Positions 451 through 60,185 of a stretch of DNA of 61,837 nucleotides are shown piece by piece. The stretch is from a virus (lineage: Duplodnaviria; Caudoviricetes), in the IMG/VR virus record IMGVR_UViG_3300028840_003061, positions 1-61,837 of that record. One strand, given 5' to 3'. The notes below the pieces were generated by a model, which searched no databases, was not told the origin of the DNA, and saw nothing but the letters and a program-made list of their open reading frames with translations. Every line of letters begins with the position of its first letter. The first letter of the stretch is position 1. The translations under genes were made by a program, and so were the position numbers.

Positions 451-767
451 TTTTAGGTATTGGTATTGTTATTATCGCTGCTCTCATTACTATGGCAGCC
501 ATCTATTTTTATGAGGACTATAGATTCCAAAAAGAATTTGAAAGTGCGTTTATTAAAGAGTTAGAAAAAGAAACCTTTATTGGAACAAAAATAGAGGTCC
601 CTAAAGTAAAGCAGAACCTTCCCCAAAAAGATACAGAGTTTTTTTGGTATGATTCAGAGTTTGATCTTGTTTTTATTCTTAAGGCTAATCAACACGACGA
701 TATACTGAACCAAAAAAATATTAACCAATCTGGCTGGAACGGGTTCGATTACATTGGTATAGTATAA
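447..767 (+). CDS. Membrane-anchored hypothetical protein
   Basis: N-terminal hydrophobic helix; GGAGG RBS; ATGA overlap. Confidence 0.65.
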   Translation: MILGIGIVIIAALITMAAIYFYEDYRFQKEFESAFIKELEKETFIGTKIEVPKVKQNLPQKDTEFFWYDSEFDLVFILKANQHDDILNQKNINQSGWNGFDYIGIV

Positions 768-2185: not shown

Positions 2186-3288
2186 GACTTTCACATAGCG
2201 CAATGGAAAAGTACAGAAGTTGTCCGGCTTCCTATAATCTACACTATAATGAAAAATTGAGAAGTCATAGAATACCGAGCCCATTTTTATTGGGTACAGC
2301 AACAGATGAGGCTTTTAATATTATCCTTTTAAGAAAAAAGGATAGCCTTACCGAGTCCGAAAAGAATAAGGTAGAGTTAGATCCGTATAAAATATTTGAT
2401 TATTATTTTACCAAAAGACAGGTAGGGGAGGAGTTATTAGACATAAGAACTTCTGAATTACCTGAATATTATAAGTCTGACTTCGATCCCTTTGTTTTAA
2501 AAGAAGAGGATTGGAAGACCTTGGAGATGTACATAAAAAATGCCGGGTATGACATAGAAGATCCTGAAGAGCTATATTATACTTTACAGGATACAGACAA
2601 AAAGGGCCTATCTTTTACTGATGCATGTTATATAAACTATTGTTGTTGGCTTTCTTTAAGAAGAAAGGGTCATTTAATGATAGATACTTATGTAAATGAA
2701 ATTATGCCTAAAATAAAGAAAGTACACAGCATCCAGAGGGAAGTTGATCTTCCGAATGATGATGGAGATCATATTTGCGGATTTATTGATTTTGAGGCAG
2801 AGTTAGAAGGCCATGAAGGAATTTATACTGTAGATAATAAAACATCTGGTCGTTCATATAAAAAAGACGCAGTTAATGAAAAAGAGCAGTTACTATTGTA
2901 TGACGAAGAGACTAATAACGGCAAAGCAGCGTATATTGTCCTGCTTAAGGACATAAAACATACAAAAGAATTAACGTGTGTAGAGTGCGGAAAAGTATAT
3001 AAAAGAGCAGTAAAGTCTTGTGGGAACACAATTGATGGTAAAAAATGTAATGGGGAACTAGAACTTAGTATAGTCGAATCTAAAGCCAAGCATCAAATAG
3101 TGGTAGATACTATAAATGAAGAAAAAAAAGATTTGCTATTTGAAGAAATAGATGATATACTCTTAAATATCAGAGAAGAGAAGTTTCCTCAAAATAGAGA
3201 TAACTGCTTTTCATACGGTAAAAAATGTATCTATTATGATGTTTGTAGAGACGGAAATCGAGAAGGTTTACACGTAAAAAGGAGATAG
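2182..3288 (+). CDS. PD-(D/E)XK exonuclease, Cas4/RecB-like, with zinc-ribbon insert
   Basis: LSHS...CP N-terminus; GFID...VDNKT...Q..LY; C-terminal C-x6-C-x5-C; internal CVECG...C...C. Confidence 0.85.
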   Translation: MRLSHSAMEKYRSCPASYNLHYNEKLRSHRIPSPFLLGTATDEAFNIILLRKKDSLTESEKNKVELDPYKIFDYYFTKRQVGEELLDIRTSELPEYYKSDFDPFVLKEEDWKTLEMYIKNAGYDIEDPEELYYTLQDTDKKGLSFTDACYINYCCWLSLRRKGHLMIDTYVNEIMPKIKKVHSIQREVDLPNDDGDHICGFIDFEAELEGHEGIYTVDNKTSGRSYKKDAVNEKEQLLLYDEETNNGKAAYIVLLKDIKHTKELTCVECGKVYKRAVKSCGNTIDGKKCNGELELSIVESKAKHQIVVDTINEEKKDLLFEEIDDILLNIREEKFPQNRDNCFSYGKKCIYYDVCRDGNREGLHVKRR

Positions 3289-4642: not shown

Positions 4643-4871
4643 ATTTAAGAATCACCATGAGCGAAGAAAGGCGGCTATTGGAGGCTCTGAGGCCTCTTCT
4701 GAGAAGACTTCAGAACAGCCTAAGCTAGAGGTAGCTGTAGAAGAAAGCAGCCAACCAGAGGCTTCTACGGAGCTTGTGGGAGATGTAAATGGAGATGGTG
4801 CTGTAGATCAGCAAGATTTGGAACAATTAGAAGAAATTATTGAAGAAACAGAAGATAAAGGAGAATTATAA
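4635..4871 (+). CDS. Small acidic protein with EF-hand/dockerin-like loop
   Basis: GDVNGDGAVDQQDL. Confidence 0.6.
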   Translation: MSKFKNHHERRKAAIGGSEASSEKTSEQPKLEVAVEESSQPEASTELVGDVNGDGAVDQQDLEQLEEIIEETEDKGEL

Positions 4872-5238: not shown

Positions 5239-5264
5239 GGCCCGGTAGAAATACCGGGTTTTTT
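5239..5264 (+). terminator. Rho-independent terminator
   Basis: CCCGGTA-GAAA-TACCGGG followed by a T run. Confidence 0.88.
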
Positions 5265-5274
5265 GTTTTTATAG

Positions 5275-5304
5275 TTGACATACTGTGATGATAGTTGATA
5301 TATT
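5275..5304 (+). promoter_or_regulatory. Sigma-70 promoter upstream of ncRNA copy 1
   Basis: TTGACA, 18-nt spacer, extended -10 TGaTATATT; predicted start about 5310-5311. Confidence 0.75.
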
Positions 5305-5309
5305 ATATT

Positions 5310-5532
5310 TGTAGGACGGTGCTGGAAGCTGTGGTTTGCGCCCTTTGATTAGGTTTAAAAGTAGGACAATTTAGCGCACTTACTTTGTTGAATAAATAGG
5401 CTGTTACAGTCCAACAAAAGGCCACTGGAGAAGCACAGAAAGATTGGGCACAGTCAACCGAAGCCTAGGTAGTAGGGAAGACCTTTCGATAGCCGCCGAC
5501 TATCATTGCCAGAGTAGCGACTGGCTCCTACA
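5310..5532 (+). ncRNA. Structured ncRNA of unknown family, copy 1
   Basis: Closing stem TGTAGGA/TCCTACA; GTGCT/AGCAC; GTGGTT/GGCCAC; hairpin GCCAG-AGTAGCGA-CTGGC; homologous to 59987-60152. Confidence 0.75.
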
Positions 5533-5553
5533 CTTTTTATTAAGGGAGAGAGG

Positions 5554-5784
5554 GTGAAAAGAAGCGAGATGTTACATAAAATAAAAGAACATTATATGTT
5601 AGGAACGATTTACAAAACAGAGCCGGATAGATTCGCTGAAATTGTTTTAGATGCTATTGAGGAATCTGGTATGTTGCCCCCGTTAGCTAAAAACCCAAAT
5701 CCGACAGGAGGATGTTTATGTACTCTAAGGGAGTCTTGTTATAATTGCGGAGGCGGTAATGAATGGGAGCCTGAAGATGGTTAG
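5554..5784 (+). CDS. Small 'MKRSEM...GMLPP' protein, paralog 1
   Basis: Shares MKRSEM, DRFA, GMLPP and W..EDG with 59373-59657. Confidence 0.75.
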   Translation: MKRSEMLHKIKEHYMLGTIYKTEPDRFAEIVLDAIEESGMLPPLAKNPNPTGGCLCTLRESCYNCGGGNEWEPEDG

Positions 5785-5917: not shown

Positions 5918-6060
5918 AGCTAAATTTATTTTTTCTTTTAATTAATAGTATTTTCTTTTCTATTTTTTTAAGTTATGGTAGTATATTAGTTATACCTTAT
6001 GCGGTTATTATTTTTGTAATAATTAATGATATTGTTAATAAGTTGGAGGACAAGAGTTGA
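5914..6060 (+). CDS. Small membrane protein (48 aa)
   Basis: ATGA overlap; hydrophobic; stop overlaps the primase start. Confidence 0.5.
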   Translation: MKLNLFFLLINSIFFSIFLSYGSILVIPYAVIIFVIINDIVNKLEDKS

Positions 6061-8072
6061 TGTATAGAAGGCTGGTCAAAGGGTTAAATCAAAAAGGGGA
6101 ACTAATTCCGTATACTGATAATATATATGATCATGTTACTAATCTTAAAAAGGATCATTATTTAAGTGTGTGTCTGTATAATGAAAAGCAAAGAGAGCGC
6201 TTCTACACCCCTATTGAAAAAACTAATATAGATACCGGAGAGGTATATAAAACCATTAATGGTGCTGCCGGTATTGATGATGTTGTTACGGATAAGTTGG
6301 TATTTGATTTTGATGTGAAGGATGGTAACTTAGAAGCAGCTAGAAAAGATACCTTAGAGGTTATTGCTAGATTAAACTCATATGGCGTAGAGTCTGATGA
6401 CATTGAGATTACTTTTTCGGGAAATAAAGGCTTTGGTCTTGTTGTAAATCTAGATGAAAGTATTACTCCAGATGAGCATAAAGATATGGCACTTGGAATT
6501 GCTGGAGATTTAGATACAACGGATTTCGTAATATACAACCCCTCTAGGGTACTAAGAGTTCCTTGTACAAAACATCAAGATAGTAAACTATTCAAAACTT
6601 ACCTTAGTTCCGATGAACTGAAAACGGCATCTATAGATGACATTAAACAATGGTCAAAAGAAGAGTTTATTCCAGACGATGCAATAAGCTTTCCGAAAAT
6701 TAAATTGCCGAAAGAGATTAAGGCGTTTAAGAATAAAAAAGAAGTACCAAAAGAAACTGTGGAGTTTGGTACTGAAAATCTTTACGATAAGATATGTACA
6801 CTTGATTTTAGTAAAAAGCCTAAGTGGTTGTCGCATTGGAAATATGCGTTGAGTAATGGGTATTTCCCATCCGGCATGCGCAACTACTCTCTTTTAATTC
6901 TTGGGGCAACCTATGCTGGACAGGGGTTCAATAAAGCCACGACATATCGAATGCTAAAAGGAGCTGCAGAATTACAAAGCGAAAGGTTTGGCCAAGATAG
7001 ATTTCCCGATGAAGAGATCTGGAAAAATATTATCGGACAGATATATGGAGGTAGTTGGACTGGGGGAACATATTCCGAGGATAATTTTCCAGAAGAGCTT
7101 CAACAGTATCTAGACGATTTGGGAATCGAAAGAACCCCTTCTGATGACGATGATAATAGATTAGTTGAGGTATTGGGAGAAGGGTTTGATGTTTTTGCAG
7201 AATATGCAAGAACTATAAATGAACATACTATAAAAACTGGGATACATCCTCTAGACGAAAAACTAAAAATACGTGCAGGTCATTTAGTGTTTATCTTAGC
7301 ACCCCCTTCTGTGGGAAAGACAAGCGCGTTGGTATCTATATTAAACCATACTAGCAAAATGGGAATACAGTCATATTTCTCAAGTTTAGACATGTACAGA
7401 CTAGAAGTATATAAGAAATTAATACAAAAACATACCAGAATGTCCGAGGACCAAATATTTGATGCATTTGTTAAAGGGGATGTAGAATTAATCACTAGAT
7501 TTAGAAATATATTAAAAGAAGAGTATGAAAATGTTAACTTGTCTTATAAATCTGGAGAATCGGTTAGTGATATGAGGAGATCTATTGAAAGCATTGAAGC
7601 GAAGACTGGTAAAAAAATTGATTTGGTTGCGGTAGATTATTTAGAGTTGGTACTAACAGAAGCGGGAGATCCAACTGCAGCAACCGCAGAGGCGGCTCAG
7701 AAGCTAAGAGAGTTAGCAAATGAAGGTAGAGTTGTGATATGTCTACTTCAGCCCAATAAACATAACTCTCATCCAAATGAACCCATTACTAGCTTTAATG
7801 GAGCAAAAGGATCTTCAAGTATTGCACAAGCATGTTCCGCCTTCCTGACGTTGCATAGGCCAGGTATGGATTCAACTAACGATAACGTAGATGATAATTT
7901 TATGGGAATAAATTGTGTAAAAAATAGAAACGGTCCTTTGTTCAGTTTGGATTTAGCGTGGGATGGGAAAACACAAACTATTTCAGAGTTAGATGATTCT
8001 GGAAGAGCTGAATTAAAAAGACTAAGGCAGAGACAAAAGGAAGAAAAAGAACAAGATGATGGGTGGTTGTAA
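6057..8072 (+). CDS. AEP-type primase fused to DnaB-like helicase
   Basis: FDFD, FSGNKGF, D..IYNPSRVLRVP; Walker A APPSVGKT; VDYLE; KNRNG. Confidence 0.88.
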   Translation: MMYRRLVKGLNQKGELIPYTDNIYDHVTNLKKDHYLSVCLYNEKQRERFYTPIEKTNIDTGEVYKTINGAAGIDDVVTDKLVFDFDVKDGNLEAARKDTLEVIARLNSYGVESDDIEITFSGNKGFGLVVNLDESITPDEHKDMALGIAGDLDTTDFVIYNPSRVLRVPCTKHQDSKLFKTYLSSDELKTASIDDIKQWSKEEFIPDDAISFPKIKLPKEIKAFKNKKEVPKETVEFGTENLYDKICTLDFSKKPKWLSHWKYALSNGYFPSGMRNYSLLILGATYAGQGFNKATTYRMLKGAAELQSERFGQDRFPDEEIWKNIIGQIYGGSWTGGTYSEDNFPEELQQYLDDLGIERTPSDDDDNRLVEVLGEGFDVFAEYARTINEHTIKTGIHPLDEKLKIRAGHLVFILAPPSVGKTSALVSILNHTSKMGIQSYFSSLDMYRLEVYKKLIQKHTRMSEDQIFDAFVKGDVELITRFRNILKEEYENVNLSYKSGESVSDMRRSIESIEAKTGKKIDLVAVDYLELVLTEAGDPTAATAEAAQKLRELANEGRVVICLLQPNKHNSHPNEPITSFNGAKGSSSIAQACSAFLTLHRPGMDSTNDNVDDNFMGINCVKNRNGPLFSLDLAWDGKTQTISELDDSGRAELKRLRQRQKEEKEQDDGWL

Positions 8073-9249: not shown

Positions 9250-9703
9250 ACTACTAGGCTATTTTGCTCAGGGATATTTACTGGCATTGGGCGTTTTTTA
9301 TGGAACAGGATGCAGTTCTGTACCAATTAAAACTGAGAGAACCTTCTATCCTTATATGATACAATTTGCTAATATAACTGGAGTAAATAAAACCAACCTA
9401 AAAGAAACAAAGATCCAGTTTAGACCAAGAGAAGGGGCGACTGTTGGTACTTGTAATTGGTTTCATAACTATATACTGGTTGACCCATTATACTGGTTTG
9501 ATCAAGCAACAGAGCCGGAAAGAGTGGCGCTTATGTGGCACGAGTTAGCCCATTGTGTGTGTTATGCTGGCCATAAAGAAGGACATTTTAGCGATGGGTG
9601 CCCTAGACACATAATGAATCCCATTTTACCTGGGGATAGTTGTATGAGAAAACACGAAGAAACGTACCGAGAAGAACTAAGGAACGCTTGTGCTGGGTAT
9701 TAA
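9227..9703 (+). CDS. Putative zinc metallopeptidase lipoprotein
   Basis: Signal peptide ending GTG-C; HELAHC...GH; Met-turn-like IMNP. Confidence 0.75.
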   Translation: MKLKNIIKLLGYFAQGYLLALGVFYGTGCSSVPIKTERTFYPYMIQFANITGVNKTNLKETKIQFRPREGATVGTCNWFHNYILVDPLYWFDQATEPERVALMWHELAHCVCYAGHKEGHFSDGCPRHIMNPILPGDSCMRKHEETYREELRNACAGY

Positions 9704-12581
9704 TCCTGATAAAGATGGTGTTGACCATATTAATGTTTACTCTAAAGGTAAAACAGAATTGGGCAGGTTACTGACCAATTTCGCTAAAACTCCATTTGTT
9801 CACCCCAAGTATGGAGAGTTTTCTTCAATAGAGGCATTGTGGTATTGGTTGTCATGTAAAGAAGATAAACTGAGACCACTACATGGATTCCAAGCAAAAA
9901 AAGTTGGTAGAGAATGTGGGGGCGAGGATTGGGTAGATGATGAGGAATTCAAAAAAACAATCATAGAAGGAATTGCTTGTAAATTAGAACAAAATCCCGA
10001 TATATTAAAACTATTAAAAAATAATACCTTACCATTAAAACATTATTATAATTACAACGGAAAAGTAGTTGAACCAAAAAACGGAAAATGGGTACTTGAT
10101 TACTTAGAAACCTATTGTGGAGATCCTGAAGAGTATATTATAGATTCTAAAGAATCAGCTGAGGAGTTTTTAGATTTTGCTAGTAGTATTCCAGTTAGCG
10201 AACAAGTAAGTCTAAAAGATAATGTTATTACTATCGGTAGTTATGGTAAGTTTGAGGTAGAGAAAGAGTATGGCTATGTGTTGGATAGGTGGAGGGACAC
10301 TTCTCCTATAAAAAAGAATTATAAAATAGTAACTAATATAGAGCTATTTAATGAATTTAATTCTTATATTGATAAGCATGGTCTATTAGCCTTTGATACA
10401 GAAACAACCGGGTTAAATGTTAGAAAAGACCGCGTAATAGGATTTTCTATATCTGGGAAATCTGGGGATGGGTATTACTATCCCATGTATACCTGGAACA
10501 AAGAAGAGCGGGCCCTAAATCCCGTAGAACCAAATCTAAGCAAAGCAAAATCAGTACTAAGTAAACTGTGTAACAAAAAATTAATTACTTGGAACGGATC
10601 ATTTGACACTAGAGTAGTTAAAAATAACTTAGGTATAAACTTAATAAATTCTATATATATTGACGGCATGTTATTAAAACACCTCCTACAAGAAGAGGGG
10701 CCTTTTGGACTAAAGCCCACAGGAATAGAACTTCAATCAGAAATAGGATTGGATGTAGAAGAAGAGGCTAATAAAGAGCAAATAGAACTTAAAGAAAACA
10801 TAGAAACCAATGGTGGATCTGCAACAAAAAGTAATTATGAAATGCATAAAGCAGATCTTGATGTTCTAGGAAAATACGCCGCAGCAGATGCAGACCTAAC
10901 TTATAGAATAGTAGAGTATTACACTAAAGAACTGGAGAGACAGGACTTAACAGAATTCTTTTTTGAAGAAGAAGTAATGCCGTTATATAAAGAAGTAACT
11001 ATACCAATGGAAGATAATGGAGTGTCTTTAGATATGCCGTTATTAGAGTCTACAAAAGAAGAAATAGAAAACGACATCAAAAAACTAGAGGGGTCTATAG
11101 TAGAGGAGCTTTTTAAACTAGATGATGTCTATGACTGGTATACTAATTCAGTAGAAGCTTCTATAGACGAGACGCCTAGAGGAAAATATGCCCAAGGAGT
11201 TGTAGAGTTTTTTAAATTGGATTTACCTAAAACAGCTTCTGGTAAATATAGTACGTCTAAAAAGAATATAGAACAGTTACAAGACAGTGAGGCCAAAGAG
11301 TTCTTCTTAGGGAACATAAATGGATTTAATCAGGAAGTCCAGTTTTCTATAAAAGAAAAGATATATCTAAAAGAGAACGAAGGAAAGAAGATAAATATAT
11401 CATCAAAAAAACAAATGTCAGAAGTAGTATTTGATTATATGGGAATCAAACCTTTATCTAAAACAGACAAAGGATCTCCTCAATTTAATGACAAAATGAT
11501 AGAGTGGTTAGAGGATAATGATCACAAGTGGGCCAAGTTACTTCATGATTATAATAAGCTAATAAAAATAAGAGGGGCATATGTAGATAGGTTTTTGGAT
11601 AATAACGAAGACGGTAAGTATTACTTTTCTTATAAACAGCATGGGACTATTAGCGGAAGATATGGTTCAGATGCCCAACAATTGCCACGCCCGTTAGAAG
11701 AAGGTCAGGAGTCGGAACTAGTAACTAAATATACTAATAGAATAAGAAGGTTTTTTATATCTGAAGAAGGTAGGATTTTTATAGACTCAGACTATGAGAG
11801 CTTAGAGCCTCATGTATTTGCGCATGTTTCAGGAGACCCTGGTTTAATATCCATTTTTAATAAAGGACATGATTTTTACTCAACTATCGCTATTGCTACT
11901 GAGAAGTTAGAGGGAGTTAGTGCTGATAAAAAAGCGGATAATTATCTAGGTAAGGTAGATAAGCAGAAAAGACAACTAGCAAAAGCATATGCCCTTGGCG
12001 TTCCATATGGGATGGGACCTTATGCGCTTGGAAAAACCTTGGGAATAGAGACAGAGGACGCAGAAGATTTGATAGATGGATATTTATCAGCTTATCCTAA
12101 GCTAAAAGAGTGGATGGATAGTTCCAAAGAAATGGCACAAAAAGAGGGTCATGTTAGATCTGAGGCCGGAAGAATAAGGCATTTGCCAAAAGTAAAAGAA
12201 ATTTACAAAAGGCATAAGGATAACTTGATGGATTTCAAATATCGTGCTAGGCTAAATAAGAAGTTCGGAAAAGAAGTAGTACTTGAAAAGTACAGGGATT
12301 ATAAAAACGGAATAAACAACAGCAGGAATTACCAAATACAATCAATGTCGTCAAGTATAGTAAATAGAGCAGCTATAGCAGTTAATAGAGAGTTTAAAAA
12401 AAGGGACATAGGTGGATGGTGTTGTGCCCAAATCCACGACCAGCTAATAGCAGATGTGCCCTTAGATAGATCTAAAGAGGCTAAGGAGATAATGAAGTAT
12501 TGCATGGAGAATACTACAAAATTATCATTAGACCTAAAAGCGCCACCAGAACTGGCTATTAATTGGAATGAGGGGCATTGA
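9690..12581 (+). CDS. polA: Family A DNA polymerase with 3'-5' exonuclease and N-terminal NADAR-like domain
   Basis: FDTETTGL; motif A DYESLE; motif B RQLAKAYALGVPYG; motif C QIHDQ; extra N-terminal domain of about 140 aa. Confidence 0.93.
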   Translation: MLGINPDKDGVDHINVYSKGKTELGRLLTNFAKTPFVHPKYGEFSSIEALWYWLSCKEDKLRPLHGFQAKKVGRECGGEDWVDDEEFKKTIIEGIACKLEQNPDILKLLKNNTLPLKHYYNYNGKVVEPKNGKWVLDYLETYCGDPEEYIIDSKESAEEFLDFASSIPVSEQVSLKDNVITIGSYGKFEVEKEYGYVLDRWRDTSPIKKNYKIVTNIELFNEFNSYIDKHGLLAFDTETTGLNVRKDRVIGFSISGKSGDGYYYPMYTWNKEERALNPVEPNLSKAKSVLSKLCNKKLITWNGSFDTRVVKNNLGINLINSIYIDGMLLKHLLQEEGPFGLKPTGIELQSEIGLDVEEEANKEQIELKENIETNGGSATKSNYEMHKADLDVLGKYAAADADLTYRIVEYYTKELERQDLTEFFFEEEVMPLYKEVTIPMEDNGVSLDMPLLESTKEEIENDIKKLEGSIVEELFKLDDVYDWYTNSVEASIDETPRGKYAQGVVEFFKLDLPKTASGKYSTSKKNIEQLQDSEAKEFFLGNINGFNQEVQFSIKEKIYLKENEGKKINISSKKQMSEVVFDYMGIKPLSKTDKGSPQFNDKMIEWLEDNDHKWAKLLHDYNKLIKIRGAYVDRFLDNNEDGKYYFSYKQHGTISGRYGSDAQQLPRPLEEGQESELVTKYTNRIRRFFISEEGRIFIDSDYESLEPHVFAHVSGDPGLISIFNKGHDFYSTIAIATEKLEGVSADKKADNYLGKVDKQKRQLAKAYALGVPYGMGPYALGKTLGIETEDAEDLIDGYLSAYPKLKEWMDSSKEMAQKEGHVRSEAGRIRHLPKVKEIYKRHKDNLMDFKYRARLNKKFGKEVVLEKYRDYKNGINNSRNYQIQSMSSSIVNRAAIAVNREFKKRDIGGWCCAQIHDQLIADVPLDRSKEAKEIMKYCMENTTKLSLDLKAPPELAINWNEGH

Positions 12582-50350: not shown

Positions 50351-50360
50351 TAGTTGTTAA
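50351..50360 (-). promoter_or_regulatory. TTAACAACTA candidate late promoter for the portal gene
   Basis: Exact copy overlapping the terminase stop. Confidence 0.55.
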
Positions 50361-51814
50361 TTCTTAATATTCATTATTTTTCTAAACATAGACTCAATTC
50401 CGCCTTCAGCTTTTTTGCTTATTTTAGACGCAAATACGTTCCCTCCGGATTTTGCTCCCCAATTCTCCGGATAAGGGTTGTGAGAACGGACCAAATTACG
50501 CACTAAATAAATAAGCGCATCAAGGGCATCTGCGTGTCCTCCTCTAACTGTCATATCTGCAGAATCAGCCATTCTAGCAAACTCTTTGTGGTTTTTATCC
50601 CAAGACCCATTAGCTACGTGGTATATTAAATGTTTACACCGAGGATTAATTATAATTTGATTATTACTAATCATCATACGTACTTGGTTTATCTGAGCTT
50701 CTTTATTATCTTTAGCCGTTGCCAGGAAGTTAAGTCCATGAAGCCTCTGTAAATCATTTACCATAATTAAGTTATTATCCATAACCCGCATATACACAGG
50801 TAAAGGGTATCCACTGTCATCTGAAAAATGTTCGGATTCTTTTTTATATATGTTATTAGCTAGAGCCTCAGTTGTCATACTAGGGCCATTCATAACTAGT
50901 TCATCTTCTATAACCAACTTGGCGTTTAAAAAATCCCAGTAAGCAAATAAATAAATAGTTAGATCTTTAAACCCTACATCCCCTGCTGTATATATATCGT
51001 AAAATGCCGGTCTATCCCATTCACGGATTAATTCCTGTTGCCTCTCTTCCGTAAATTCTGGTATCACTACTGATTCGTCATCTTGTATTATTTCGCAAAG
51101 GTATTCTCTTTTAAACTGAGGATCTTCTTTTCCTGTTGGAAATCTTGCTGCAATCCCTTCTATCTTTCTCTCGCTTAACATTGGGTTGTCATATATGTTT
51201 AAAACCAGAAGAGAGTCTGCAGCTTTCGCTGGTCTTATAAACTTAGTGATAAAATCGTGGTTAGCACTTTTAGATGGGGTTGATATTAATACGATCTTAC
51301 CATCAGTAGTATCTGTAGTTGGAGCAAGAATAGAATTTACAACATACTCTAAGTGGTCACAGAAACCGGCCTCATCTACTATGCATAGATGTGATGCGCC
51401 CCCTCTAAGATTCTCATGGGAACCATTATCTGTTCCCGCAAATTGTATTTGAGAACCGTTCGGAAAAACGTACATCTTGTCATTTTCTTTCCATTCCGGT
51501 CTTAGATCCCTAGGACAATCTTCTAGTATGACTCTCATGTTTGGTTGAACAATTGTCTTTACCATCTTTAAACGAGGACAAACATATTTTACAATTGCGT
51601 TGGGAGTAGTCATACAAAGCTCGACAGCTTCTACAGTCATCTCAAAACTTTTTCCCAACCGTCTAGATGCTAGTATAGGGATTATATCCCGTTTATCTTT
51701 TAATATATAGTCTCGCATTTTGAGCTGGCCATCATGTCTCTTATAACTAAGATCTCCCCTTGACCATATCTCTCTTAATGCTTCTCTTTTTGAGACTTTT
51801 CTGCGTCTAGCCAC
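50357..51814 (-). CDS. terL: Terminase large subunit
   Basis: Walker A SRRLGKS; Walker B IVDEAG; ISTP; FKREYLCE; nuclease GD.G and HADALDALIY. Confidence 0.95.
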   Translation of the reverse strand: MARRRKVSKREALREIWSRGDLSYKRHDGQLKMRDYILKDKRDIIPILASRRLGKSFEMTVEAVELCMTTPNAIVKYVCPRLKMVKTIVQPNMRVILEDCPRDLRPEWKENDKMYVFPNGSQIQFAGTDNGSHENLRGGASHLCIVDEAGFCDHLEYVVNSILAPTTDTTDGKIVLISTPSKSANHDFITKFIRPAKAADSLLVLNIYDNPMLSERKIEGIAARFPTGKEDPQFKREYLCEIIQDDESVVIPEFTEERQQELIREWDRPAFYDIYTAGDVGFKDLTIYLFAYWDFLNAKLVIEDELVMNGPSMTTEALANNIYKKESEHFSDDSGYPLPVYMRVMDNNLIMVNDLQRLHGLNFLATAKDNKEAQINQVRMMISNNQIIINPRCKHLIYHVANGSWDKNHKEFARMADSADMTVRGGHADALDALIYLVRNLVRSHNPYPENWGAKSGGNVFASKISKKAEGGIESMFRKIMNIKN

Positions 51815-59139: not shown

Positions 59140-59376
59140 ATGAATAATACTAAAATTACTGGAAAAGTAACAATAGATGTGGAAGATTTTGATAGACTAA
59201 GAGATGCCTCAAAGAAACTAGATCGTATATACGAGGTGGCTGAATGCATAAAAATAAAGCATACTGAAACTTATAGAGAACCAACGACTGCCGGATTTGC
59301 CGGAGGCGAGCCGTATGTTGCAAACGAGGACCACGAAAAAAATAATATTATTTTGAATATTAAGAGGATTCTATGA
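59140..59376 (+). CDS. Hypothetical protein
   Basis: AAGGA RBS. Confidence 0.55.
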   Translation: MNNTKITGKVTIDVEDFDRLRDASKKLDRIYEVAECIKIKHTETYREPTTAGFAGGEPYVANEDHEKNNIILNIKRIL

Positions 59377-59657
59377 AAAGAAGTGAGATGGTAGGACATA
59401 TTGCCGCAGAATTAGAGGAGATGCTTTCTACCTTAGAAGCTAGGCCTAAAACTAGGCCGTATATTACCGACAGGTTTGCTAATAATCTTTTAGATATGCT
59501 GGAGGGGTTTGGTATGTTGCCTCCAGTAGAAGATCCGGCACATAGACACGATTTATCTCGATATATATGGGATTATGAAGATGGTAGTTTTAATCAACTT
59601 GTGAACGAGTTTTTAGAAGAAAACGAAGAACTTATGGAGATGTTGGGAGACGAATAG
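59373..59657 (+). CDS. Small 'MKRSEM...GMLPP' protein, paralog 2
   Basis: Shared motifs with 5554-5784. Confidence 0.75.
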   Translation: MKRSEMVGHIAAELEEMLSTLEARPKTRPYITDRFANNLLDMLEGFGMLPPVEDPAHRHDLSRYIWDYEDGSFNQLVNEFLEENEELMEMLGDE

Positions 59658-59902: not shown

Positions 59903-59985
59903 AAAAAATAGCTATCACCAGGCCCCCAACGATCTGGGATTTGAGGTAACATGCCTTATCCTGCATACCTACCTGGTAATAACTA
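59903..59985 (-). other. Three-way-junction RNA element or terminator at the 3' end of ncRNA copy 2
   Basis: 14-bp stem TAGTTATTACCAGG/CCTGGTGATAGCTA enclosing two hairpins, then T6. Confidence 0.55.
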
Positions 59986-60156: not shown

Positions 60157-60185
60157 AGTATACTAAATGTAGTGTATTAAGTCAA
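60157..60185 (-). promoter_or_regulatory. Sigma-70 promoter upstream of ncRNA copy 2
   Basis: TTGACT-17 nt-TATACT immediately before the closing stem. Confidence 0.8.

Follow-up and report, generated by a model that had tools for sequence, protein, structure and literature searches.

Do two noncoding segments that lie on opposite strands of a phage genome represent an RNA family, and if so, what might such an RNA do? We asked this of IMG/VR virus record IMGVR_UViG_3300028840_003061, a linear sequence that is estimated to be 71% complete and whose 61,837 nucleotides were analyzed over their whole length (hereafter, the window). One structured RNA is present twice in the window, as copy A (223 nt) at 5310-5532 (+) and copy B (166 nt) at 60152-59987 (-). 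An earlier reading of this DNA, made from its letters alone (the sequence-only reading), had described them as two homologous structured RNAs, each with its own promoter, in which a conserved multi-junction core carries variable arms. That description agrees with the matches of both copies to an independent covariance model, R1, and with covariation across their relatives, and because of these two results the resemblance between the copies is beyond chance. We consider it nearly certain that they belong to a real RNA family that has no entry in Rfam 15. The family is apparently undescribed and is a candidate for a new functional RNA class.

Shared sequence, covariance model and fold

The shared blocks, the identical 18-mer, the helices, and the two lengths named by the sequence-only reading are all present in the window. 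The only two sites of the 18-mer TGCCAGAGTAGCGACTGG (as RNA, UGCCAGAGUAGCGACUGG) are 5507-5524 (+) and 60014-59997 (-); at up to 3 mismatches the window has no further match, and none of 100 shuffled sequences contains at least two matches. The blocks GGTGC(T)GGAAGCTGT (as RNA, GGUGC(U)GGAAGCUGU) and GCACAGA are also common to both copies, and their order is kept. The closing stem is UGUAGGA/UCCUACA in copy A versus GUCUACGAA(A)/(U)UUCGUAGAC in copy B, the next helix is GUGCU/AGCAC versus GUGCG/CGCAC, and the third helix is GUGG/CCAC versus GUA/UAC. Minimum free energy folding of the single sequences gives z-scores of +0.35 for copy A and -2.91 for copy B; by itself, such folding is uninformative for copy A, moderate for copy B, and not decisive.

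R1 was built from a seed of 13 short members from other phages, with both window copies left out, and spans 166 positions. It matches copy A with 73.5 bits (E 2.9e-19) and copy B with 36 bits (E 1.1e-8), each over model positions 1-166, and at E values up to 10 it finds no matches in the window besides these two.

Relatives were gathered by exact and gapped motif scans and then scored with the covariance model. A scan of the viral collection for the 18-mer found 4 loci. The pattern GAAGCTGTGG N25-55 CCACTGGAGA found 31 loci, 28 of which are full-length members by the model; the other three (L015, L021, and L020) match the pattern only. Scanning for CGGCGTGGGAAGCTGTGG added 19 new loci with model matches in 13, the remaining 6 being chance matches within coding sequence, and a 23-base gapped pattern found 47 loci in metagenome contigs, 45 of them with a full model match. 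A weak third match, in L177 (13 bits), was judged unconvincing. A descriptor script recovered 78 instances overall, representing 53 distinct sequences and 50 non-redundant representatives. These 50 members come from viral and metagenome contigs and are 136-276 nt in length (median 174), with an RNA GC content of 47-64% in loci of 36-61% GC.

The family was found on phage-like contigs, with no true matches in 1,203 sampled bacterial genomes. In three phylum samples the pattern matched in 0 of 401, 1 of 401, and 1 of 401 genomes, and in a further set in 0 of 5, with no true member among those searched. Both bacterial matches were discounted as chance, given that they cover model positions 18-77 only and that a reversed-pattern control also matched once in each of two sets. 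A scan of genome contigs for the P5-hairpin 16-mer matched 82 loci, none of which contains the 5' motif; in a database as large as this one, chance alone is expected to give matches to a 16-mer. A blastn search of copies A and B against cultured phages gave no match, although this route is insensitive and does not imply absence there. At E values up to 10, blastn of locus L028 returned a lone 27-nt match to an Erwinia phage, a region that the model rejects and that we attribute to chance.

Covariation gives strong evidence for a folded RNA. From 23 sequences aligned with MAFFT, RNAalifold predicts four helices with 22 pairs, 15 of which show compensatory double changes; pair counts were made on that MAFFT alignment, which was not fitted to structure. 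Changes on both sides affect 7 of 7 pairs in P1, 3 of 5 in P2, and 5 of 5 in P5, while the base of P3 is invariant but was fixed by the search patterns. Altogether, 97.4% of the cells are paired, compared with 75.0% in column shuffles, and none of 500 shuffles reaches the observed value. When the partners are slid by 1-3 columns, only 28-41% pair. According to the sequence-only reading, homologs that kept the blocks without compensatory pairing would have argued for a DNA-level site, and the homologs instead retain that pairing. P5 contains 11 G-U pairs versus 1 A-C pair, and therefore the fold belongs to the given strand.

The fold is a cloverleaf-like four-way junction made up of P1, P2, an internal loop, the P3 arm, a variable P4 region, and P5. 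P1 (5-18 bp, median 7) joins the 5' and 3' ends of the RNA and is linked by CG to the covarying helix P2 (GCGUG/CACGC), after which there is an optional bulged G. The invariant internal loop that follows places GAAGCU opposite URGAGA (UGGAGA in 37 of the 50 members, UAGAGA in 9, and other sequences in 4). Within this loop, the U of GAAGCU may pair with the R of URGAGA, and its C with the G that comes next, which would leave tandem G-A/A-G pairs beside P2. P3 (GUGG/CCAC) opens into a variable arm whose 3' side is A-rich, and the P4 region ranges from 43 to 168 nt among 27 tabulated members. A U-rich linker of 2-4 nt leads into P5, a 5-bp, G-C-closed hairpin with the loop AGUMGCGM, in which U3, G5, and G7 are invariant and C6 is present in 49 of 50 members. 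The 3' strand of P1 begins directly after P5, with zero spacer. In all, approximately 25 core nucleotides are kept across loci of 36-61% GC.

Copy A is canonical for the features of the family; it matches R1 over its full length, and its helices are backed by covariation in relatives. P1 lies at 5310-5316/5526-5532 (with the linker CG, J1/2, at 5317-5318), P2 at 5319-5323/5432-5436 (with the bulged G at 5324), and the internal loop at 5325-5330 (GAAGCU) and 5426-5431 (UGGAGA). The base of P3, at 5331-5334/5422-5425, carries an arm of 87 nt; the variable P4 region occupies 5437-5507, and P5 occupies 5508-5512/5521-5525, with the loop AGUAGCGA at 5513-5520. Copy B, on the minus strand, also matches the model over its full length but is divergent. 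It keeps P1 (60152-60144/59995-59987), P2 (GUGCG 60141-60137/CGCAC 60074-60070), GAAGCU (60136-60131), and the P5 hairpin (60013-60009/60000-59996, with the loop AGUAGCGA at 60008-60001), while UAGAA (60079-60075) and a 3-bp P3 base (GUA 60130-60128/UAC 60082-60080) stand in place of the consensus.

One structural proposal of the sequence-only reading is not supported. It had suggested a pseudoknot between the loop sequence UAGC and the core sequence GCUG, but the loop reads UCGC in 33 of the 50 members while GCUG is unchanged, so that the U-A pair is lost; since GCUG is fixed by all of the search patterns, this comparison is not a clean covariation test.

Comparison with known RNAs

At the gathering threshold, none of the 4,227 models of Rfam 15 matches anywhere in the window, and in 12 other member loci the only matches are to transfer RNAs (tRNAs) located elsewhere in those loci. 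With E values up to 10, the window copies and two other member loci give chance matches only, so the known RNA that might have removed the novelty of the element did not appear. Weak matches to RybB and anti-hemB were dismissed because they cover only the upstream terminator at 5239-5270. ARAGORN likewise finds no tRNA or transfer-messenger RNA (tmRNA) genes in the window. The earlier judgment that the copies are not a tRNA, tmRNA, hammerhead, or intron is supported. Across 48 member loci, ARAGORN makes a single call inside the element, a 91-nt tRNA-Leu in L232 at 2233-2323 (-). What prompts this call is a T-arm look-alike within the variable P4 region; such look-alikes, found in 4 of 50 members versus 5 in a reversed control, were rejected as a family feature. 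Perfect examples in variable arms are UCGG-UUCAAGU-CCGA in L232 and CCAG-UUCGAAU-CUGG in the P3 arm of L157.

The general architecture of the element nevertheless resembles that of tRNAs. Like the tRNA cloverleaf and tRNA-like domains such as those of tmRNA and YrlA, it forms a four-way junction, with a closing helix of median 7 bp and a 2-nt linker. A 5-bp, G-C-closed hairpin adjoins the 3' strand of the closing helix to give a potential stack of approximately 12 bp, and a U-rich linker of 2-4 nt precedes that hairpin. Unlike a tRNA, the element has an 8-nt loop, AGUMGCGM, rather than a 7-nt UUCRA T-loop, a long extension consisting of P2, the internal loop, and P3 at the position of the D-arm, a P4 region that is not an anticodon-arm-like hairpin, and no CCA end. 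Neither ARAGORN nor the tRNA, tmRNA, and YrlA models of Rfam match the element as such.

The pattern of conservation raises a different explanation, namely that the element belongs to a new ribozyme class, self-cleaving or catalytic in another way, with the internal loop and the P5 loop as its active site and cleavage near one end of P1. Cleavage of this kind would process polycistronic early transcripts or define the ends of the RNA. Very high conservation in an internal loop and a hairpin loop, with arms that are free to vary, is what such a ribozyme would show, as is co-orientation inside operons without gene association, and the confinement of the family to phage-like contigs points the same way. 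Twister, pistol, hatchet, and twister-sister ribozymes have been found in comparable contexts. Like twister-sister, hatchet, and pistol, the element is an orphan, gene-independent, co-oriented component of phage contigs with strictly conserved loop nucleotides and free arms, and twister-sister can likewise be a four-way junction. However, none of the known self-cleaving classes (hammerhead, hairpin, HDV-like, twister, twister-sister, pistol, and hatchet) gives a consensus match in the Rfam scans, even at E values up to 10, and at 136-276 nt the element is larger than most small ribozymes. Moreover, P1 closes both ends in every case, and a cleavage site is not inferable from the sequence. We regard a ribozyme as unlikely, though still a serious rival.

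Antisense immunity RNAs of the P1 c4 and P4 CI type have loops that are complementary to targets in their own operon. We rejected this assignment: among 41 loci, the longest complementary run between the element and its flanks of +/-4 kb averages 9.68 nt, versus 9.54 nt in a reversed control, and the C4 family of Rfam matches neither the window nor any of 12 other member loci.

Because the strand-specific fold is equally valid for single-stranded DNA (ssDNA), the element might instead act as a lagging-strand or single-strand initiation site similar to ssoA of rolling-circle plasmids and draw RNA polymerase or primase to the folded strand. Like the element, ssoA is structured and orientation-specific, approximately 160 nt in length, and has a TAGCG-type hairpin loop (PMC4598088, PMC5703833); the CS-6 loop motif of ssoA is given as TAGCGT (PMC4598088). 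The corresponding pentamer, TAGCG, is found in 15 of the 50 P5 loops, and copy A lies beside a replication module. On the other hand, the majority loop contains TCGCG (UCGCG in the RNA; 33 of 50), and the member sequences contain no block resembling the RSB sequence given in PMC4598088. The carriers are tailed double-stranded DNA phages, with terminase-sized and portal-sized genes, rather than rolling-circle plasmids. The orientation of the element follows transcription, and two of its features, 3'-terminal U-runs and a promoter with +1 at P1, are those of an RNA. An ssDNA signal is a highly improbable explanation.

A literature search by topic found no description of the element, with the supplementary lists of PMC10690425 lying outside that search, and a search by motif string returned unrelated primers only; two preprints from 2026 concern other elements. 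Fremin, Bhatt and Kyrpides (2023; PMC10690425) list 8,495 unnamed RNA candidates of DNA viruses from IMG/VR, with lengths of 29-151 nt (mean 67). The element shares with those candidates an intergenic IMG/VR source and evidence from covariation, and it is longer (136-276 nt). Parts of it could be among these unnamed candidates.

Transcription signals and genomic context

The sequence-only reading had placed each copy a few nucleotides after its own sigma-70 -10 box, and the measured gaps to P1 are 5 nt for copy A and 4 nt for copy B. Promoter A, at 5275-5304 (+), consists of the -35 hexamer TTGACA (5275-5280), an 18-nt spacer with a TG preceding the -10 hexamer, and the -10 hexamer TATATT (5299-5304); it matches the sigma-70-type consensus at 11 of 12 positions. 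Just 5' of it, at 5239-5270 (+), lies an intrinsic-terminator-like hairpin (5239-5260, a 9-bp stem containing 5 GC pairs, with TTTTGTTTTT after it) that would close the upstream transcription unit. On the other side of copy A, 1 nt past P1, a U5 run at 5534-5538 (+) is a possible 3' end or attenuation point, located just ahead of the ribosome binding site of an open reading frame (ORF) at 5554-5784. Promoter B, at 60157-60185 (-), has the -35 hexamer TTGACT (60185-60180), a 17-nt spacer, and the -10 hexamer TATACT (60162-60157), with 10 of 12 consensus matches. Copy B is followed, at 59903-59985 (-), by an extra branched hairpin (59985-59909) with a U6 run directly after it (59908-59903). The hairpin folds with -33.2 kcal/mol (z -2.99), a value equaled in none of 200 shuffles, and together with the U6 run it is likely the terminator of the copy B transcript.

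Across the family, a correctly placed sigma-70-like promoter precedes 4 of the 50 members (window copies A and B, L004, and L006), compared with a background of 1% (p 0.002); the scan covers sigma-70-like promoters only, and hosts with other promoter types fall outside it. A run of at least four T residues starts within 8 nt of the end of P1 in 21 of 50 members, versus a genome background of 5% (p 9e-15) and local controls of 6 of 50 (upstream mirror image) and 10 of 50 (upstream TTTT), and in 14 of 50 it starts within 3 nt. The promoters, the T-runs, and the terminator hairpin of copy B argue for a discrete transcript.

These U-runs bear on the possibility that the element is a cis-acting attenuator or riboswitch-like leader, in which folding of the core, perhaps with a ligand or factor, would form P1 next to the U-run and stop transcription, with read-in to the downstream gene otherwise. 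Besides the excess of U-runs, many members show the order P1, U-run, Shine-Dalgarno sequence, and start codon, with a same-strand ORF of at least 60 amino acids (aa) beginning within 45 nt downstream in 17 of 50. Copy A sits between a terminator-promoter pair and the genes for a primase/helicase (6057-8072) and a family A DNA polymerase (9690-12581), and its core is conserved to a degree seen in aptamers. Yet the downstream genes are mutually unrelated, with no shared family, and in 10 of 46 cases the next gene is convergent, which leaves no regulatory target downstream; copy B is such a case and has its own separate terminator. We saw no alternative (antiterminator) pairing that is conserved, a U-run is lacking in 29 of the 50 members, and the U-run, which is the only feature resembling an expression platform, may be a mere A/U-rich translation enhancer. 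An attenuator is in our estimate distinctly unlikely, though it too must be weighed seriously.

The arrangement of the window copies suggests yet another function, processive antitermination as in phage HK022, where homologous put RNAs (putL and putR) lie behind two early promoters on opposite strands. In such a mechanism, the nascent RNA would bind RNA polymerase and cause read-through of downstream terminators. In the window, too, a strong promoter on each strand is directly followed by one of the two homologous RNAs, which would need no phage protein to act; RNA polymerase is a universal target that fits conservation across hosts, and copy A stands at the head of a co-directional gene block of approximately 15 kb. 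But whereas both window copies are promoter-proximal, this holds by scan for only 4 of 50 members family-wide; members are mostly single-copy, several end operons, and many have a U-run immediately afterward, an odd feature for an antiterminator. Copy B heads at most one 74-aa ORF and then a terminator. The put RNAs are two simple stem-loops of approximately 70 nt rather than a four-way junction, a difference in fold and size that is drawn from their general description, with no put sequence compared. This mechanism is very unlikely, and we consider it and the ssDNA signal less likely than the ribozyme and the attenuator.

With respect to neighboring genes, copy A lies upstream of small ORFs, the primase/helicase gene, and the DNA polymerase gene, and an HNH endonuclease gene at 60746-60204 (-) immediately precedes copy B. 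The product of that gene is HNH_3 homing-endonuclease-like, with a C-terminal helix-turn-helix. In L004, L018, L026, and L028, a different HNH family is represented within 4 kb of the RNA, and this proximity may hint that the RNA moves within mobile cassettes. The neighbors that can be named are early-region genes (HNH endonucleases, Erf recombinase, integrases, metallophosphoesterase, and PAPS reductase), and no protein family within 4 kb of 27 loci is common to more than 4 of them. We also sought a dedicated partner protein genome-wide in the window and 15 near-complete carrier genomes (36-58% GC) and found no candidate. The most widespread families in these 16 genomes are terminase-sized (9 of 16), portal-sized and capsid-sized (7 of 16), and HNH (7 of 16) proteins.

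The element is co-oriented with its neighbors, both upstream (36 versus 12, p 7e-4) and downstream (36 versus 10, p 2e-4). It is found after divergent junctions as a leader, between cistrons, or as the final element ahead of convergent genes (10 cases), and the intercistronic copies often begin 2-25 nt past a stop codon and end approximately 20 nt ahead of the next start. At E values up to 0.01, the element is present as a single copy in each of the 23 other phage records. Given this single clear copy, the co-orientation, the varied positions, and the lack of a shared neighbor or partner protein, the RNA would appear to be an autonomous module rather than a regulator of a particular neighboring gene. 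All of its contexts (leader, intercistronic, end of operon, and stand-alone gene) fit an autonomous module whose function resides in the invariant core.

Function of the conserved core and variants of the family

What might an autonomous RNA of this kind do? Our preferred explanation, which we hold tentatively, is that it is a stable, trans-acting RNA, either a tRNA-like mimic or decoy or a modulator of an RNA-handling enzyme, the polymerase, or the ribosome, and that its core is recognized by a component conserved across very different hosts. We rank a trans-acting RNA first because both window copies are complete small genes, because their ends are paired, and because no phage protein co-occurs with the element. 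Each copy would be a gene of its own, in which transcription starts from a strong promoter, with +1 at the base of P1, and stops at a terminator-like U-run, at 5534-5538 for copy A and after the extra hairpin, at 59908-59903, for copy B. Transcription would then yield an abundant early RNA with paired ends. By analogy with the acceptor/T-arm helix of a tRNA, P5 probably stacks on P1 (median 7 + 5 bp), and the P5 loop probably docks on the internal loop between P2 and P3, giving a compact, conserved core from which the arms are free to vary. The host component that recognizes this core in trans may be universal, since loci ranging from 36 to 61% GC all retain the approximately 25 core nucleotides.

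Several observations weigh against a trans-acting tRNA-like RNA. Among the listed sequencing runs, no RNA run contains the locus; two DNA runs do, and these may be the source samples. The tRNA-like geometry is drawn by analogy, and the 8-nt P5 loop without UUCRA, the P1 of 5-18 bp, and the absence of an ARAGORN call in the window do not favor it. Ribozymes and ligand-binding aptamers, more typically than protein-bound RNAs, conserve approximately 25 nucleotides this strictly. In addition, the promoter at 5275 seems to be the sole promoter ahead of the replication genes, so copy A and its U-run could equally be a regulated leader, and a recognizable promoter of their own precedes only 4 of 50 members, the majority of the family being embedded in operons. 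The ribozyme and the attenuator are serious rivals because the conservation of nucleotides and the order of P1, U-run, and Shine-Dalgarno sequence favor them. Taken in a wider form, these alternatives amount to a new catalytic or ligand-sensing class of phage RNA, either a self-cleaving ribozyme or an aptamer that closes P1 beside the U-run and couples a universal cellular signal to early transcription. We regard such a class as doubtful; its pocket would be formed by the AGUMGCGM loop docked on the GAAGCU/URGAGA internal loop.

RNAs with approximately 25 invariant core nucleotides and four covarying helices that are spread over unrelated phages of widely differing base composition are usually ribozymes, riboswitches, or partners of central cellular machinery. 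The element is a new, well-defined, compact, and testable RNA fold with no entry in Rfam 15 and no partner protein encoded in its genomes; its window copies are presumably expressed from two strong promoters. Whatever its function (host take-over, anti-defense mimicry, transcript processing, or signal sensing), it would represent a new RNA tool for phage biology, and the alignment of 50 members supplies natural mutants for functional tests.

Variants of the element are found in other records as well. L147 contains a minimal form at 585-698 (-) that lacks P4 and P5 and ends in U6. Second copies are present in L149 at 2446-2608 (+), where the second copy is the more diverged (E 5e-5), and in L005 at 4665-4822 (+), where a diverged second copy (E 0.045) has its own compensating P1. 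Therefore, a diverged second copy is not unique to the window, and the family may hold subtypes that are barely detected by the present model.

Some features of the surrounding DNA were also observed. The ORFs at 5554-5784 (+) (76 aa) and 59373-59657 (+) (94 aa) are paralogous (48% identity over 52 aa, E 8e-9) and match no Pfam or PHROG family. The former starts 21 nt past copy A on the same strand, and the latter is convergent to copy B, approximately 250 nt past its terminator. The terminase-sized ORF of the window, at 50357-51814 (-), has only distant relatives among cultured phages, the best with 30% identity (a Silvanigrella phage), followed by Vibrio phages at approximately 24%. Both window copies are near contig ends and point inward, and the RNA often lies approximately 1-5 kb from a contig end (G001, G003, G009, G014, G016, G012, G017, and the window). 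By a hand count, 10 of 25 copies are within 10% of the record length from an end, although contig ends may be arbitrary. Finally, simple repeats that are open in several frames lie shortly downstream of the RNA in L005 (7252-7492), L009 (6847-7099), and L014 (2147-1694, minus strand); they encode repeats of the Gly-Ser-Trp or Gly-Tyr-Gly-Asn types, and each is preceded by an ORF of approximately 100-113 aa.

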